A stretch of 19,260 nt of DNA from Gemmatimonadota bacterium (lineage in GTDB: Bacteria > Gemmatimonadota > Gemmatimonadetes > Palauibacterales > Palauibacteraceae): contig JBHIAV010000049.1 in the NCBI GenBank assembly GCA_046758745.1, positions 1 through 19,260 on the forward strand, in the 5' to 3' direction. Under the pieces are notes generated by a model. It searched no databases and was not told where the DNA came from. It saw only the letters and a program-made list of their open reading frames with translations. A program made the position numbers and the translations under genes. Every line of letters starts with the position of its first letter. Position 1 is the stretch's first letter. Below are positions 5,512 to 10,714 of the stretch, piece after piece.

Positions 5512-5967
5512 ATGAAGATCCCGCTCCGGGCCGTGGCGATCGCCCGTTCTGGCGACAAGGGCGACACGGCCAACATCGGCCTCATCGCTCTGACGGAGGA
5601 GCTCTATCCGGTGCTCGCGCGCGAGGTTACGGCGGAGCGAGTGAAGGAGCACTTCCGCGGCATCTGTCACGGGCAGGTCGAGCGCTTCGAGCTCCCGAAC
5701 CTGCGAGCGCTCAACTTCCTCCTCCACCGATCGCTCGGCGGCGGAGGTACCGTCTCTCTCATGCTCGACGCCCAGGGAAAGACGTTCGGCGCCGCGCTCC
5801 TCCGGATGCGCATCGAGGCGCCGGAGGAGATGGTGGCGCGCGCGGCCGAGAGCGTGCGCGGCATCGACGAGCACGCGTCTGGGGCTCCTGCCGAAGCAGG
5901 GAGGGACGCCGACCCCGAGAGGGCTCACGATGCCGGACCCCCGAACTCCGAGACGGCCCATGTATGA
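5512..5967 (+). CDS. AtuA C-terminal-domain-like small protein
   Basis: MKIPLRAVAIARSGDKGDTANIGLI...VERFELPNLRALNFLLHRSLGGGGTVSLMLDAQGKTFG resembles the ARSGDKG C-terminal module of AtuA; low-complexity C-terminal tail. Confidence 0.85.
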   Translation: MKIPLRAVAIARSGDKGDTANIGLIALTEELYPVLAREVTAERVKEHFRGICHGQVERFELPNLRALNFLLHRSLGGGGTVSLMLDAQGKTFGAALLRMRIEAPEEMVARAAESVRGIDEHASGAPAEAGRDADPERAHDAGPPNSETAHV

Positions 5968-6724
5968 GAACCTTCTGACCTCGGTGGACGAGGCGATCGG
6001 CGTCTCGCGCATCGTCCTCAACCGGCCCGAGCGCCGCAACGCGCTGAGCGCCGGCCTCGTGTCCGATCTCAAGGACGCCCTCGCCTTCGCGGAGGCGGAC
6101 GACCGGGTGCGTGCCATCGCGCTCGGCGGAGCCGGTCCCGATTTCTGCGCCGGAGCCGACCTGAGGGAGGTGCAGGCTTCAGTGGAAGAGGGAGTCCTGA
6201 GCAGTCTGGCCGACGCCGAGTCGCTCGGCGAACTCTTTCTCCTCCTGCGCCGGCTCTCCAAGCCGGTGGTGGCGCAGGTGCAGGGCCGGGCCCTCGCCGG
6301 CGGCTGCGGGCTGGCCACCGCGTGCGATCTGGTGGTGGCCTCCTCCGACGCCCGCTTCGGCTACCCGGAGGTGAAGCTCGGCTTCGTCGCCGCCATGGTG
6401 ATGGCGATCCTCCGCCGGACGGTCTCCGAGAGGCGCGCCTTCGAGCTGATCGTGCTCGGCGACACGATCGGCGCCGAGGAGGCCCGGCAGCTCGGCCTCG
6501 TGAACCGTGTTCTTCCGGCGACGGAGTTCGAAGAGAAGGCGAGCGATTTCGTCGCCGAGCTGGCGACGCGCAGCAGCTCCGCCGTCGCCCTCTCCAAGCG
6601 ACTGCTGTATCAGATCGACGGGGCGAGCTTCGATGCGGCGATCCAGGCGGGCGCCGAGGTCAACGCGATCGCGCGGCTGACCGAAGATTGTCAGGAGGGG
6701 ATCCGCAGCTTTCTGGAACGGTAA
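5960..6724 (+). CDS. Enoyl-CoA hydratase/isomerase family, methylglutaconyl-CoA hydratase-like
   Basis: LNRPERRNAL, FCAGADL, ALAGGCGLATACD (Gly at the first catalytic Glu position), FGYPEVKLG. ATG 5960 overlaps the upstream gene end. Confidence 0.88.
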   Translation: MYENLLTSVDEAIGVSRIVLNRPERRNALSAGLVSDLKDALAFAEADDRVRAIALGGAGPDFCAGADLREVQASVEEGVLSSLADAESLGELFLLLRRLSKPVVAQVQGRALAGGCGLATACDLVVASSDARFGYPEVKLGFVAAMVMAILRRTVSERRAFELIVLGDTIGAEEARQLGLVNRVLPATEFEEKASDFVAELATRSSSAVALSKRLLYQIDGASFDAAIQAGAEVNAIARLTEDCQEGIRSFLER

Positions 6725-6766
6725 GGGACGGGAACGGGGAACGCCGAGGAGATAACCGAAGCGACC

Positions 6767-7501
6767 ATGGAAACGGGGACTACGGAGGCCTCCCACGCCG
6801 GAGGCGACGCGGCGAACGTGGAGTCAGGCTCGGGAGTGACGGTCGACCGTGAGGGGACACTTCGGCTCTCCCGGGCCTCGGCCGCGTTCCTCCGGGTTCT
6901 GGCCTTGGCGAGCGCCGTGGCCGGGGCGTGGCTCATCGATGGTGCCAGCCGGGCCGGCCTGAGCCTCGGGATTCTCCTGCTCGTCCTCTCCCTCGGTTCG
7001 GCCGCGATCGTCCTCGGCGGGGAGACGTTCGGCCCCGACGCGGAGGGACCGCTGGATCTGAGCGCCCGCCTCGCGCTCGGCCTCCTCGGGGGCTTGCTCG
7101 CGGGACTCACCCAGGCGGCCCTCACCCGAATCGGCGGCGCGACCGGGCTCTTCGGCCTGCTCGGTGTCGGTATCGACTCCCGCCTCGCCGCTTCGGAGTG
7201 GGCGCTCCGCTGCGCGTGGGGCAGCGGGCTCGGGCTCGCCTTCGGCGTCCTCTTCCGGCGGCTCCCGGGGACGTCGTCCGTGCGACGAGGCGCTTGGTTC
7301 AGCCTCCTCCCCACCGCGTACCTGCTTCTCTACTACTATCCGATCACGCTGGGAGTCGGCCTGCTGGGGATGCGCCTCGGGTTTCTGACCCCGTTCGTCG
7401 TGGCGTTCGTCAACCTGGTGCCCGGCGCCGTGGCCGGGGCGGTGATGGGGTGGGGCGAGCGGACCGACCTGGCGCCGATCAGCCGCCCCCTCGTCGGGTG
7501 A
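6767..7501 (+). CDS. Uncharacterised multi-pass membrane protein
   Basis: Several Leu/Gly/Ala-rich hydrophobic segments (e.g. LSLGILLLVLSLGSAAIVLG, FLTPFVVAFVNLVPGAVAG); co-oriented with the operon; GAGGAG upstream. Confidence 0.7.
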   Translation: METGTTEASHAGGDAANVESGSGVTVDREGTLRLSRASAAFLRVLALASAVAGAWLIDGASRAGLSLGILLLVLSLGSAAIVLGGETFGPDAEGPLDLSARLALGLLGGLLAGLTQAALTRIGGATGLFGLLGVGIDSRLAASEWALRCAWGSGLGLAFGVLFRRLPGTSSVRRGAWFSLLPTAYLLLYYYPITLGVGLLGMRLGFLTPFVVAFVNLVPGAVAGAVMGWGERTDLAPISRPLVG

Positions 7502-7722
7502 CCGGCGGAGCCGGTGACGGCTCTCCGCGCGACTGGCTCTACCGACAGATCGGCCTGGGGCTCGCCGGCGGCCTTGTGTGGCTCGCCGGAGTCCGTTTCG
7601 AGAGCGGTGCGCTGCGAGCGGCCGGCTTCGTGCTGCTCGTGTGCGCCCTGGCTCTCCGGCTGGCGCGCCGCGCAAGCGACAGGTCGGGGGAAGAACCCGA
7701 CGACGGAGGAAATCCTCGGTAG
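7498..7722 (+). CDS. Small two-TM membrane protein, 74 aa
   Basis: C-terminal part of ORF 6928..7722; GTG 7498 overlaps the upstream TGA (GTGA); IGLGLAGGLVWLAGV and AAGFVLLVCALALRL are hydrophobic. Confidence 0.6.
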   Translation: MTGGAGDGSPRDWLYRQIGLGLAGGLVWLAGVRFESGALRAAGFVLLVCALALRLARRASDRSGEEPDDGGNPR

Positions 7723-7911
7723 GAGCGACGCCCTCCGAGTCGCTCTCCCATAGCTCGCCCTGAGGGGTTGCGGGGCCTTGGTGAAAGCGGCAGGTCGCGG
7801 CGCGACCGGGTCGGCCGGGCTTCCGCGAGGCCGAGCGATCCCGCCCGACCCGCAGCGCGCCGTTCGATGCGTCCCCCGCCGCTGCCGACGACGCCTCTCT
7901 CCGCGGCTTCT

Positions 7912-8121
7912 CTACTGGTTCGCCCGGCAGCCGTCCAAGCAGCCGGTGTGCCATTCGAGGCACGAATCGGGGTCGAGCAGTCCGATCGTCTTCTTGCAGC
8001 CGATGTAGATGACGTCGCAGTACAGCCCGCACCAATTGACCTTCGCGGCCGCCGGCGCATCATCGGCACTCCCTCCCGTCAGGGTGAAGAGCGCCGCCAG
8101 AAGGATGATCGTTCGCCTCAT
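7912..8121 (-). CDS. Secreted six-cysteine peptide A, 69 aa
   Basis: MRRTIILLAALFTLTGGSADDAPAAA-KVNWCGLYCDVIYIGCKKTIGLLDPDSCLEWHTGCLDGCRANQ; SD GGAGGAGGTGG before ATG 8121; signal-peptide-like N-terminus. Confidence 0.8.
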   Translation of the reverse strand: MRRTIILLAALFTLTGGSADDAPAAAKVNWCGLYCDVIYIGCKKTIGLLDPDSCLEWHTGCLDGCRANQ

Positions 8122-8300
8122 CTTCCACCTCCTCCGCATCTCGTTTCTCACGTTGATGTACCTCGGCGGTCGGTCGGTCCATCGACCCGGCACGAGTCCG
8201 GCCCGGGGACACCGCGATCGTCCGATCGACCTGTCTGGAAGACAGAAACGATGGACGCGCCGTTCGCGCGGGCTCCCGCGTGACGCTCCGCCGGGGAATC

Positions 8301-8510
8301 CTACAGGTTCGCGATGTTGCAGCCTGCCAGGCAGCCCAGGATGTACCAGGTGCACTTCCAGCTGTCGATGCGCTCGCAGTGTGCAGCGGCCCGCTCGGCG
8401 CAGTAGTCCGTGCAGTCGACCTGGCGCGCCGCGGCGGCCGCCGGCCGGCTACCCCCGCCGGAAGCGCCCAGCATGGTGAGAGCGGCGAGCGCCATCACGA
8501 AACGTCGCAT
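8301..8510 (-). CDS. Secreted six-cysteine peptide B, 69 aa
   Basis: MRRFVMALAALTMLGASGGGSRPAAAAA-RQVDCTDYCAERAAAHCERIDSWKCTWYILGCLAGCNIANL; SD AAGGAGGTG before ATG 8510, 19 nt after the thioredoxin-like gene stop. Confidence 0.8.
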   Translation of the reverse strand: MRRFVMALAALTMLGASGGGSRPAAAAARQVDCTDYCAERAAAHCERIDSWKCTWYILGCLAGCNIANL

Positions 8511-8529
8511 CACGCACCTCCTTTTCCTG

Positions 8530-9105
8530 TCACGGTGAACCGCGGGGATCCGCGGCGGGGCGCCCCGCCACTTGGCCGGCGAGGCGCAGGATCGAGTCGA
8601 TGGCAGTGGCCCCGAGCACGCCGGAGAGGCGAACGCGCAGCCGCCGGTCTCCGTCCACGACCAGCGTCGTTGGGACCACGGAGAGGCCAAGCCTCGCGAC
8701 GAATCGGGACTCGTCGGCAGGCCGCACCGGCACGGCGCTCGGCATGTGCGCCTGCGCGTACGCAAAGCCGGAGTCGGCCGGCTCGAGCGCGACGGCGAAC
8801 GGCCGGATTCCCCTCGGAAGGCGACGGAGAAGCTCCCGCCACGCCGGAAGGTTGCGCTCGCAGGCGCCGCATGTGGACTGGAACACCAGCAGGAGGGCGG
8901 GACCGCTACCCGCGACGCTCACCGAGTCGCTCGAATCGAGCCGCGCCATCATCAGCCCGGGCGGAACCGGGTCCCCCTCTCCCGCCTCGTCGCGGGCACG
9001 CCACGCCGGAAGCAGGCGATCGTTGATGAGCAGCGCCGCGGCCGCCACTACCGCCGCTCCCGTCCCCGCGTTGAGCGCGATCTCCCCGACCCGGTGCCGT
9101 CCCAT
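8530..9105 (-). CDS. Membrane-anchored thioredoxin-fold thiol-disulfide oxidoreductase (TlpA/MauD/redoxin-like)
   Basis: N-terminal hydrophobic anchor (AAVVAAAALLI), LLLVFQSTCGAC (CxxC), cis-Pro loop LGLSVVPTTLVVD; SD GGAGGGG before ATG 9105. Confidence 0.82.
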   Translation of the reverse strand: MGRHRVGEIALNAGTGAAVVAAAALLINDRLLPAWRARDEAGEGDPVPPGLMMARLDSSDSVSVAGSGPALLLVFQSTCGACERNLPAWRELLRRLPRGIRPFAVALEPADSGFAYAQAHMPSAVPVRPADESRFVARLGLSVVPTTLVVDGDRRLRVRLSGVLGATAIDSILRLAGQVAGRPAADPRGSP

Positions 9106-9250
9106 CGTCCCCTCCGCACCGCTCCCGGCGCCGCCCCGGAGCGAGTGCAGGATCGTCCGGCCAGATCAACGAGGCGTCATCAACCGGCGGGACGGGACCG
9201 GGAGAAGGGTCCTTTGAAGGGCAGGTGACGCGGCTCGGCACCCTCGCGAC

Positions 9251-10714
9251 ATGTCCGCCGAGGACCGCCTCCCCGCCGCTCGGGCCGTGCTGGCCAGCCT
9301 GTTGGGGCATTCGGATTTCCGGCCCGCCCAGGCCAGGGTGGTGCGCGCCATGCTGGCCCGGCGGGACGTCCTCGCCGTCCTGCCCACGGGAGCCGGCAAG
9401 TCGGTGTGCTTTCAGGTCCCGGCCCTTCTCGAGGCGGGGATCACCGTGGTGGTCTCTCCCCTCATCTCGCTGATGGACGACCAGGTGGTGGCGGTGCGGC
9501 GGCGAGGGTTTCCGGCCGCGGCCCTCACGTCCCTCTCCTCTCCATCCGACCGAGGTGAGGTGGCGCGGGCGCTGGCATCCCGTCGGCTCAAGCTTCTCTA
9601 CGTCTCGCCTGAGCGGCTCGCCACGGGCGCCTTCCGTCGTCTGCTCGGCGGTTGCTCGATCAGCCGCGTTGCCGTGGACGAGGCGCACTGCATCAGCGAG
9701 TGGGGGCACGACTTCCGGCCCGCCTACCGCCGCATCGCGACCTTCTGCGCGGCGATGGGACGGCCGCCGGTGGCGGCGTTCACGGCCACCGCCACTCCGG
9801 CAACCCGCGCGGACATCGAGGCCTCCCTCGTCCTACGGGATTCGGTGAAAGTGGTCGGCCACGTGGACCGTCCGAATCTGTGGTGGGGAGTCGAGACCGC
9901 GCGCAGCCTGGCGGCGGGCGCATGCCGCGTCATGCAGGTCGTCCGTCGCACGGCCGGCGCGGGCATCGTCTACCTCCCGACGCGGGAGCGGGCGTCCCGG
10001 CTCGCGGAGGCGCTCATCCGGACGGGAGTGCCGGCCGTCCCGTATCATGCCGGCCTGAGCGCCGACGCGAGGCGGTCCGTGCAGCAGGGCTTCCTGGCCA
10101 GCCGGCACCGGGTCGTGTGCGCCACGAACGCGTTCGGGATGGGGATCGACCATGCCCATGTACGCTTCGTGTGTCACTTGGGCGTGCCAGGCTCCCTCGA
10201 GGCGTACGTCCAGGAGGCCGGCCGCGCCGGGCGGGACGGCGGGCGGGCCCGGTGTCTGTTGCTGAGCTGTCCCGGCGACTTTCGCCTGCAGCGAGGGCTC
10301 GCTGCGTCGAAGTGGCCCTCGCCGCGGCTCCTCTCCGCCGTGTGGGAGTCGATGCCCGCCGGTCGGGCGATCTCCGTTGCGGAGGTTCGGGAGCGTCTGG
10401 GCCGTCGCGCGGCCGAGGAGCCGGTGGGCGCGGCGCTACGTCTGCTGATCGAGCAGGGATGCGCTCGCCGGGCTCGTCCGACGGGCGCGCCGGATGAGGA
10501 GGCGGTGGTTCGGGGCCCGGCGAGTCTTCGGCGCCGGATCGACTTTTCCGCCCCTTCGCGCGGACGTGCGCGCGCGGCCGAGCGGCTCGAGGCGATGCGT
10601 CGATACCTTCGTCGCCGCGACTGTCGTCGCGCGATGCTCGCCGCGTATTTCGGCCAGCCGGCCCCGTCCTGCGCCGGATGCGACTCGTGCGACGCTCGGC
10701 GGCGTCCGGGATGA
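9251..10714 (+). CDS. recQ: RecQ-family ATP-dependent DNA helicase, no HRDC domain
   Basis: [80 protein letters not shown]-terminal CRR..YFG..CAGCDSC zinc site. Confidence 0.93.

Follow-up and report, generated by a model that had tools for sequence, protein, structure and literature searches.

Dedicated thioredoxin-like partners are known for sublancin and, in the case of MauD, for the small subunit of methylamine dehydrogenase; TrbB and StoA are further examples, and similar disulfide catalysts, BlpG and PedC, are found in Gram-positive bacteriocin loci. With regard to small helical proteins rich in cysteines, the mitochondrial small Tims are helix hairpins with two CX3C-CX3C disulfides that form hetero-oligomers, glycocins have a helix-loop-helix shape, and plant alpha-hairpinins, which include trypsin-inhibitor members, are processed from larger precursors. 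The Csp proteins are single-chain four-helix bundles of more than 100 residues, the cysteine-lined cores of which bind Cu(I). According to the available text of PMC11591084, alpha-hairpinins such as Luffin P1 and EcAMP1 are short helix-loop-helix peptides in which CX3C motifs are cross-linked between the helices, with the pattern CX3C-Xn-CX3C in the four-cysteine (4C) members and C-X3-C-X3-C-X4-20-C-X3-C-X3-C in the six-cysteine (6C), three-disulfide versions. In the available text of PMC12457901, glycocins (sublancin, glycocin F, thermoglycocin/orniglycocin) are nested-disulfide hairpins, some of them with three disulfides, and are defined by S/O-glycosylation through a glycosyltransferase of the cluster and by leader removal by a PCAT (a C39 peptidase-ATP-binding cassette (ABC) transporter). 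Here we describe a three-gene locus on a 19,260-nucleotide stretch of Gemmatimonadota DNA (JBHIAV010000049.1; this whole stretch is called the window), which encodes two small six-cysteine proteins, named U and D, together with a thiol-disulfide oxidoreductase. The concept of a cysteine-rich exported product accompanied by its own oxidoreductase is not new; the proteins themselves, their pairing and their setting are.

Two paralogous six-cysteine miniproteins and their linked oxidoreductase gene

The window is contig C49 of its genome (3.08 Mb, 130 contigs, 87% complete). Three minus-strand open reading frames (ORFs) lie there between plus-strand genes and encode an oxidoreductase of 191 amino acids (aa), then U, then D. 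Their features, with the names given to the peptides in an earlier reading made from the sequence alone (the sequence-only reading), are as follows.

8530-9105, minus strand: predicted membrane-anchored thiol-disulfide oxidoreductase of the thioredoxin fold, 191 aa, from the ORF and profile matches
8301-8510, minus strand: U-type six-cysteine miniprotein (peptide B of the sequence-only reading), 69 aa, with a putative leader at about residues 1-28 and a mature core of about 41 aa
7912-8121, minus strand: D-type six-cysteine miniprotein (peptide A of the sequence-only reading), 69 aa, with a putative leader at about residues 1-26 and a mature core of about 43 aa

The minus-strand trio, the two 69-aa ORFs, their Shine-Dalgarno sites, leaders and cysteine spacings had all been pointed out in the sequence-only reading, and all were found in the sequence. 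The cysteines of U (33/37/45/53/60/64) follow the pattern C-x3-C-x7-C-x7-C-x6-C-x3-C and those of D (31/35/42/54/61/65) the pattern C-x3-C-x6-C-x11-C-x6-C-x3-C. Both proteins exhibit the motifs CxxYC and GCLxGC, and they are 37% identical to each other (BLASTP E 2e-7). The conservation of the cysteines, proposed earlier as a test, is complete, as all six are invariant in the 26 U-type sequences (alignment A5) and in the 33 D-type sequences (alignment A6). The invariant residues are C33, C37, A41, C45, C53, Y56, C60, L61, G63 and C64 in the U-type, where G59 is conserved in at least 90% of the sequences, and C31, C35, C42, C54, G60, C61, G64 and C65 in the D-type. This six-cysteine pattern is far above chance expectation. 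In the phylogenetic tree, the split between U and D is supported at 100/100, and each half contains members of both host families; hence, the two copies arose from an old duplication and have both persisted. U and D are ancient paralogues and genuine, constrained genes.

The constraint differs between the two parts of each protein. The median identity to the window sequence is 84% for the core of U (18 orthologues) versus 38% for its leader, and 59% for the core of D versus 36% for its leader. Leaders that are free to diverge beside constrained cores are what characterises an exported protein whose signal is cleaved off. A home-made heuristic applied to 59 sequences, which requires K/R within the first seven residues, a hydrophobic 10-mer and a small-x-small site, classified all leaders as Sec-like (26/26 for U and 33/33 for D), in agreement with the signal peptides expected in the sequence-only reading. 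The cores are anionic, with a mean net charge of -1.5 for U and -3.0 for D.

The sequence-only reading regarded the family as undescribed, and no characterised family was matched in searches of Pfam, NCBIfam, PDB sequences and protein folds. No Pfam or NCBIfam model reached its cut-off with U or D, and a PDB sequence profile search with alignment A4 gave no homologous structure; its lone match, a micronemal protein at E 0.19, was rejected. When 5.8 billion proteins were searched through a word index with U and D as queries, 57 of 73 candidates reached E<=0.01. These homologues are 52-74 aa long and all unnamed or 'hypothetical', and the labelled ones come from metagenome-assembled genomes of Gemmatimonadota. 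When 33 D-type sequences served as queries, 69 matches of the same unnamed kind were obtained. As HMMER, run exhaustively over 1.84 billion cluster representatives, found only 22 matches at E<=0.001, the family is real but narrow. No fused or longer peptide forms were observed among 8000 scored candidates, which is weak evidence. The best feature score in the ESM Atlas ('hypothetical', 'cysteine rich repeat') was 0.85, under the lead threshold of 0.9, and was not used. No description of the U/D family was found in the literature, and the available main text of an ecogenomic paper on the Palauibacterales (marine Gemmatimonadota) contains no mention of bacteriocins, cysteine, thioredoxin, disulfides or peptides that are made on ribosomes and modified post-translationally (RiPPs).

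Some curated models gave sub-threshold matches. D matched Lepto_8Cys (TIGR04453) with 19.9 bits and E 7.3e-4, for a cut-off of 34 bits, and 10 of the 76 family members matched this model at E<=0.1 (best E 4.5e-4). Weak matches were also obtained with RumC_sactiRiPP (NF035950; 12/76 members, best E 0.0039) and with Syntroph_Cxxx (TIGR04117, targets of radical S-adenosylmethionine (rSAM) enzymes with CXXX repeats; 6/76 members, best E 0.015). We judged the three sets of matches to be cysteine-composition noise or, at best, remote kinship. As a side observation, four D-type rows of alignment A6 (L038, P0071, P0075 and P0076) have a C-terminal tail of consecutive glycines closed by one aromatic residue (GGGGG...F/Y).

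The three genes occur together. Among 20 species-representative contigs found by U-specific patterns, D follows U in all 20 and the enzyme gene precedes U in 19, the remaining contig beginning at U. The flanks, RecQ on one side and a membrane protein and hydratase on the other, are the same in 18/20, which are those that extend far enough; this could be plain synteny of relatives. U is followed by D in 23/23 loci inspected. In a sample of 401 genomes of the phylum, the pair was present in six genomes only, all from the host order, and the two further matches were marginal singletons (E ~7e-4), one with an in-frame stop. Of the 145 genomes of the host order, 62 encode the peptides, namely 36/113 in family f1 plus the genome of the window and 25/31 in family f2. 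The number of matches per genome is exactly two in 58 of these 62, one in two genomes, and three and six in a single genome each. The distribution is clade-wise by genus (14/16 in g3, 10/11 in g153, 10/10 in g13, 0/36 in g2 and 0/12 in g6), and the trio looks vertically inherited inside sub-clades.

The sequence-only reading had proposed that homologues should be linked to an oxidoreductase gene. The enzyme gene is located directly upstream on the same strand, at 25-125 nt by the envelope of the hidden Markov model, in 61/62 peptide-bearing genomes; in the sole unlinked genome, G402, the contig stops just upstream of U. In family f2, the order of the trio is kept while the flanks are wholly different from those of f1: a DUF5916/CBM9 protein is encoded divergently upstream, and a lipoprotein of 370-380 aa downstream, after which comes the gene for a Fur-family regulator. 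One of the two f2 loci inspected also has downstream genes for an ABC ATPase and a permease. Because the linkage survives this changed context, it is the best evidence that the three genes act together.

Relatives without the trio retain the backbone of the locus, which comprises atuA, the hydratase, the membrane protein, RecQ, the acyl-CoA dehydrogenase and RNase G. At the position of the trio, G058 exhibits about 300 bp with no gene, whereas, by reading of the translations by eye, some relatives, among them G270, have a gene for a secreted protein resembling DUF1028 plus TPR, and G258 has an alpha/beta-hydrolase and a Tag-like glycosylase. The slot between RecQ and the membrane protein was located at 8621-9718 (plus strand) in L033, 6456-7709 (minus strand) in L011, 3202-4521 (minus strand) in L027 and 5839-7277 (minus strand) in L034. 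The sequence-only reading had called the trio 'inserted', which agrees with a minus-strand trio amid plus-strand genes; it is better described, however, as an accessory cassette at a variable site of a conserved backbone, passed on vertically within sub-clades.

A few further loci deserve mention in their own right. The f2 genome G401 has six peptide and three enzyme matches on contigs C24, C32 and C38, which correspond to three copies of the trio; the scores of those on C32 are identical to the scores on C38, which may reflect a duplication in the assembly. The synteny of RecQ, trio, membrane protein and hydratase is also seen, at similar identity, on a 4.1-kb contig assigned to Akkermansiaceae (L015), which is probably mis-binned. 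In G398, a secreted-looking small ORF with nine cysteines, of a different type and with no family match (L081:104-340, minus strand), is found about 1.5 kb from a weaker relative of the enzyme (E 5e-20). Directly 3' of the peptide genes in f2 and in genus g10, a lipoprotein of 363-380 aa with a sub-threshold match to a six-bladed beta-propeller (DUF5128) is encoded (L036:7247-8356, plus strand; L037:5788-6930, minus strand; L079:2017-3108, plus strand). It was rejected as a universal fourth component, being absent from the f1 loci, including that of the window, with only a partial match at E 6.4e-5 in the genome of the window.

The oxidoreductase and the predicted fold of U and D

The enzyme of 191 aa is hydrophobic near its N-terminus (residues ~9-27) and carries the motif STCGAC. 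Its active site is CGAC, whereas most orthologues exhibit CP[AT]C. In the alignment of 18 orthologues (A7), C79-x2-C82 and V144-P145, which belongs to a VPTT motif, are invariant, and the latter would correspond to the cis-proline loop. As a single sequence, the enzyme remained below the cut-off of every curated Pfam and NCBIfam model: it reached 18.8 bits (E 0.002) for Thioredoxin_2 of Pfam, the cut-off of which is 27, and, in NCBIfam, 14.3 bits for dsbE (cut-off 123), 13 for ResA (170) and 24.4 for WAxxUGC_long (300). The profile of the 18 orthologues matched the solved structures of StoA (3erw, E 5.3e-7), the Thermus thiol-disulfide isomerase 3ia1, DsbE, ResA and CcmG. Judged by E-value only (E<=0.01) and not by bit scores against the cut-offs, NCBIfam matches were obtained for individual orthologues with dsbE (14/18), StoA (12/18), TrbB (11/18), ResA (8/18) and MauD (5/18). 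From these profiles, we assign the enzyme to the thioredoxin fold as a predicted divergent member of the TlpA/DsbE/ResA group; since the curated cut-offs given above were all missed widely, it belongs to a divergent unnamed sub-family.

The genome of the window encodes no close paralogue of this enzyme, the next match being at E 0.002. Elsewhere, it encodes a DsbA-like protein directly upstream of a VKOR, a second DsbA-like protein and a protein of the CcdA/DsbD type, and no DsbB was found in it. As these housekeeping redox genes are located elsewhere and no close paralogue exists, the enzyme is additional to a complete housekeeping system.

Models of U and D were obtained with AlphaFold2 from the family alignments, and both place a two-helix hairpin after a signal helix and a disordered linker. 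The mean predicted local distance difference test (pLDDT) value is 81 for U, with 92-96 in the core and helices at 33-44 and 51-68, and 80 for D, with 96-97 in the core and helices at 30-44 and 51-68. As judged from the sequence, the three cysteines of each helix appear to lie on one face. On either side of the loop, the cysteine spacings mirror each other (3/3 and 6-7/6), and such matching distances from the loop on both helices fit a ladder of nested cross-links C1-C6, C2-C5 and C3-C4. A glycine directly precedes C5 and C6; both glycines are invariant in D (G60, G64), as is G63 in U, where the other is G59. The invariant A41 of U would occupy the position of a 'missing rung'. These small residues, namely the glycines of GCxxGC and A41 of U, could allow the helices to pack closely, as disulfides between helices need. 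The three nested disulfides C1-C6, C2-C5 and C3-C4 are thus the most likely pattern in both U and D, as judged from the sequence. A Foldseek search against the PDB gave nothing at E<=0.001, and a wide fold search with VIA-align gave only generic helical hairpins, with a best Z of 4.2. Luffin P1 (2l37) was ranked 33 among these hairpins, with a Z of 3.4 and a root-mean-square deviation of 2.4 A over 40 residues, which is in the noise band.

The two proteins differ in the polarity of their helices. In U, helix 1 is polar (mean Kyte-Doolittle value -1.28) and helix 2 is greasy (+1.20), with 0 exceptions in 26 sequences. In D, this is reversed, helix 1 (+0.35) being greasier than helix 2 (-1.31) in 32/33 sequences. 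A complex prediction for U and D gave a score of 0.40 (runs at 0.40/0.41/0.40) versus 0.04 for the best control, in a band (0.32-0.60) where passes of this predictor are more often wrong than right unless the complex is likely beforehand. The contact agreement was at least 92% and the partner pLDDT at least 77. A U/D heterodimer is plausible as a model. The two-peptide system suggested in the sequence-only reading stands in so far as the genes are kept as a pair (exactly two in 58/62 genomes), whereas the predicted heterodimer supports it weakly.

Proposed mechanism and rival explanations

Based on these observations, we propose that the three-gene operon makes two paralogous small proteins that would be exported by Sec and cleaved by signal peptidase I. 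Each mature peptide would be an antiparallel helix hairpin of about 40 residues with a three-rung disulfide ladder (C1-C6, C2-C5, C3-C4). The presumably co-transcribed TlpA/DsbE/ResA-like protein, anchored in the membrane and probably facing the periplasm, would be the dedicated thiol-disulfide oxidoreductase of U and D. E. coli DsbA tends to join consecutive cysteines, and proteins whose disulfides are non-consecutive depend on an isomerase driven by a reductant. A nested ladder made from CxxxC motifs would be such a substrate, so a dedicated proof-reader of the TlpA/DsbE type would fit. Most plausibly, the enzyme would proof-read or isomerise the wrong consecutive pairings that the housekeeping DsbA/VKOR makes in the CxxxC motifs, and the CcdA/DsbD of the genome possibly feeds it with reductant; alternatively, the enzyme may oxidise the peptides directly. 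The hairpins of U and D, with their mirror-image polarity, would probably pack their greasy helices against each other as a heterodimer. This heterodimer would stay in the cell envelope, with a role in binding, a structural role or an inhibitory role rather than one in killing. The sequence-only reading had called the peptides secreted; the Sec-like leaders agree with this, but in a diderm bacterium the products are probably periplasmic. To the proposal as a whole, i.e., a Sec-exported pair of stapled hairpins with a dedicated TlpA/DsbE-like partner, forming a heterodimer with a clade-specific envelope role, we give an even chance of being right.

Several points weigh against this proposal. 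The signal peptides were called with a home-made heuristic, not with SignalP, the support for the heterodimer was graded 'weak', and a conserved envelope role of U and D is a guess. The closest solved or curated relatives of the enzyme, namely StoA, DsbE/CcmG, ResA and TlpA-type proteins, are mostly reductants, which suits proof-reading but would equally suit the keeping of thiols in a reduced state for metal binding. Furthermore, seven genomes have an orthologue-level enzyme (E<=1e-38) with no match to U or D. The exceptions in G458 and G479 are cut by contig ends (for G458, from coordinates alone). In G446 and G449, however, an orthologue-level enzyme (E ~1e-51) has been retained although its gene is followed by no six-cysteine ORF, a DUF192-like lipoprotein being encoded 3' of the enzyme in G446, and G425 has one divergent six-cysteine peptide, followed by Fur. 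Therefore, the enzyme is not strictly tied to the U/D pair. In genus g10 (G495, G316), the enzyme gene is followed by that of a different secreted protein of about 85 mature residues, with four conserved cysteines and no family match (L079:1630-1989 and L080:1515-1913, both on the plus strand), next to which the beta-propeller lipoprotein is encoded. This suggests that the enzyme lineage serves whichever small cysteine-bearing secreted protein is encoded beside it.

In its widest form, the proposal would make the trio a new bacterial class, in which an alpha-hairpin heterodimer of mirror polarity, with three disulfides per chain or 12 thiols, has its own TlpA-like redox partner. Such a class would be a prokaryotic counterpart of the twin-CX3C proteins and alpha-hairpinins and an order-specific, redox- or metal-active envelope module, with an enzyme lineage that services interchangeable small cysteine clients (six-cysteine hairpins in most genera, four-cysteine proteins in g10). 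We put this forward tentatively and consider it rather doubtful.

The main rival explanation is that U and D are thiol-rich metal binders. They would remain reduced in a small four-helix bundle, the 12 core cysteines of which would bind soft metals, e.g., Cu(I), for periplasmic storage, buffering or detoxification, and the TlpA-like protein would be a reductase fed by CcdA/DsbD. The reductive character of StoA, DsbE, ResA and CcmG suits this explanation, as does the CcdA/DsbD membrane reductant donor encoded in the genome. The cysteines on one helix face, with CxxxC and heptad-like spacings, recall the cores of Csp proteins; anionic, highly conserved cores suit a binding protein; and the complementary polarity of U and D, together with the weak heterodimer support, suits a bundle. 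Nevertheless, the 26 U and 33 D sequences exhibit no conserved His, Met or Asp next to their cysteines, neither genomic context has a conserved gene for metal resistance or copper, and none of the 76 members matches a metal-binding Pfam family. Csp-type families gave no Pfam match in these 76 members and no PDB sequence matches either. The glycines before C5 and C6 and the mirror-symmetric spacings would also be better suited to cross-links between helices than to a metal cluster. We consider metal binding unlikely. Stapled hairpins matured as we propose could instead have another conserved periplasmic role, either as inhibitors of an enzyme of the protease or lysozyme type or as signals to a conserved receptor. 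The very high conservation of the U core suits the recognition of a conserved partner, and the beta-propeller lipoprotein encoded after the peptide gene(s) in f2 and g10 could be that partner, but its gene is missing in all f1 loci and the genome of the window has only the weak partial match mentioned above. Activities of alpha-hairpinins are varied (antiviral, ribosome-inactivating, antifungal and antibacterial in the available text of PMC11591084). No receptor or kinase gene is linked to the trio, nothing specific favours inhibition, and we see only a slim chance for such a role.

An antimicrobial function was among the options of the sequence-only reading, and U and D might be a two-peptide bacteriocin or toxin, released to act jointly on competitors, with the oxidoreductase as the disulfide catalyst of the locus, like BdbA/B for sublancin. 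Two related small exported peptides beside a dedicated thioredoxin-like gene would fit this, as would a cassette at a variable site with a patchy distribution across genera and the ABC ATPase and permease downstream in one f2 locus. The nested-disulfide hairpin is also the shape of glycocins (PMC12457901, available text) and, with its two helices, of antimicrobial plant alpha-hairpinins (PMC11591084, available text). This option is nevertheless disfavoured by the negative net charge of the cores, by the clade-wise, apparently vertical inheritance, and by the core of U, which is better conserved (median identity 84%) than RecQ (50-61%), the hydratase (62-68%) and the enzyme itself (32-47%). Moreover, the 23 loci share no conserved gene for immunity, for a PCAT or for export across the outer membrane, nor is any transporter or tailoring gene conserved near the trio, and a Sec leader in a diderm bacterium reaches the periplasm only. 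The trio is probably not a classical bacteriocin, and we consider a released two-peptide toxin improbable. The weak matches to RumC_sactiRiPP (12/76) and Syntroph_Cxxx (6/76) could point to RiPP precursors resembling sactipeptides or ranthipeptides and cross-linked by a radical-SAM enzyme encoded elsewhere. All of these matches, judged by E-value only, are weak and far from significance (E >= 0.0039), hydrophobic Sec-type leaders are unfit for cytoplasmic maturation, no radical-SAM gene adjoins the trio in the 23 loci (by tblastn or ORF inspection), and symmetric cysteines on both helices are unlike those of sactipeptides. The trio is probably not a RiPP of the sactipeptide type, and we regard such RiPP precursors as a very improbable identity.

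Surroundings of the trio and comparison with known systems

The remaining features of the locus are listed below.

8517-8521, minus strand: Shine-Dalgarno sequence GGAGG, 6 nt before the start of U
8128-8135, minus strand: Shine-Dalgarno sequence GGAGGAGG, 6 nt before the start of D
8122-8300, minus strand: intergenic spacer between U and D, 179 nt
9106-9250, no strand: divergent intergenic region between the trio and recQ, presumed promoter region, from ORF coordinates

The stop codon of the oxidoreductase gene is at 8530-8532, and the gap of 19 nt to the start of U contains the GGAGG. The spacer between U and D is unusually long in the window, those of six related loci measuring 11-43 nt by ORF coordinates; neither a terminator nor an Rfam family was detected in the window spacer. 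A simple scan of 9106-9250 gave no sigma-70-like site, and an Rfam scan of positions 7400-9400 gave no matches. Promoter or terminator consensus sites in 7400-9400 were found only on the plus strand within the ORF of D and were judged irrelevant.

On one side, the trio is adjoined by plus-strand genes for an enoyl-CoA hydratase (5930-6724) and an unnamed membrane protein (6767-7501), and, on the other side, by those for RecQ (9251-10714), an acyl-CoA dehydrogenase and RNase G. The sequence-only reading noted no adjacent transporter or tailoring enzyme, and neither adjoins the trio in the window. The multi-pass membrane protein (6767-7501, plus strand, 244 aa) has no Pfam or NCBIfam match, and its gene directly follows that of the enoyl-CoA hydratase throughout the order, whether the trio is present or not. 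Located 3' of it is an ORF of about 65 aa (window ~7520-7722, plus strand) with two hydrophobic segments (...WLYRQIGLGLAGGLVWLAG...LLVCALALRLARR...), which is probably an unannotated gene for a small membrane protein; comparable small ORFs are located 3' of the homologous membrane protein in L011, L026, L027, L033 and L034.

U, D and the enzyme represent an undescribed, order-restricted family of paired six-cysteine miniproteins, predicted to be hairpins, with an associated oxidoreductase, and we consider this observation robust. A compact encoded scaffold of about 40 residues, with two helices and three predicted cross-links, would apparently be very stable and thus attractive for peptide engineering, particularly as it would be made through the general secretion pathway plus a single helper enzyme. 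The trio may also provide a clean natural case for the formation of non-consecutive disulfides by a dedicated enzyme other than DsbC. It probably reflects an envelope function peculiar to its clade, within a lineage that is widespread in marine and sediment habitats but uncultured, and it illustrates that there are strongly constrained families of small ORFs that no curated library covers yet. If metal is bound by the cysteines, U and D would be a minimal two-chain analogue of copper-storage bundles.

With regard to the known systems, the alpha-hairpinins share with U and D the arrangement CX3C...CX3C, which is found at C33/C37...C60/C64 in U and at C31/C35...C61/C65 in D and is invariant in the 26 and 33 sequences, respectively. 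The 6C spacing of the alpha-hairpinins is, however, not observed, as U exhibits 3-7-7-6-3 and D 3-6-11-6-3, the third pair being spaced by x6-7/x6 and not by x3. In addition, there is no detectable sequence homology, and, unlike alpha-hairpinins, U and D are bacterial and anionic and have Sec-like leaders and a dedicated oxidoreductase gene. The alpha-hairpinins are analogues of U and D, which are not members of that family. The glycocins resemble the trio as bacterial nested-disulfide hairpins with a cluster-encoded thiol-disulfide oxidoreductase (BdbA/B for sublancin). In contrast, the trio is devoid of glycosyltransferase and PCAT genes, its leaders are Sec-like and not of the double-Gly type, and its hosts are diderm Gemmatimonadota. 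Homology of U and D to the small Tims or to the Csp proteins was not detected, and both are functional analogies only. As for the enzyme, its CxxC, its V-P, read as the cis-proline, its N-terminal anchor and its profile matches are those of the TlpA/ResA/DsbE(CcmG)/StoA/TrbB/MauD group. It differs from the TlpA/ResA/DsbE group in its surroundings, where no cytochrome c maturation, mau, tra or sporulation genes are present, but, like MauD, TrbB and StoA, it appears to be dedicated to particular substrates.

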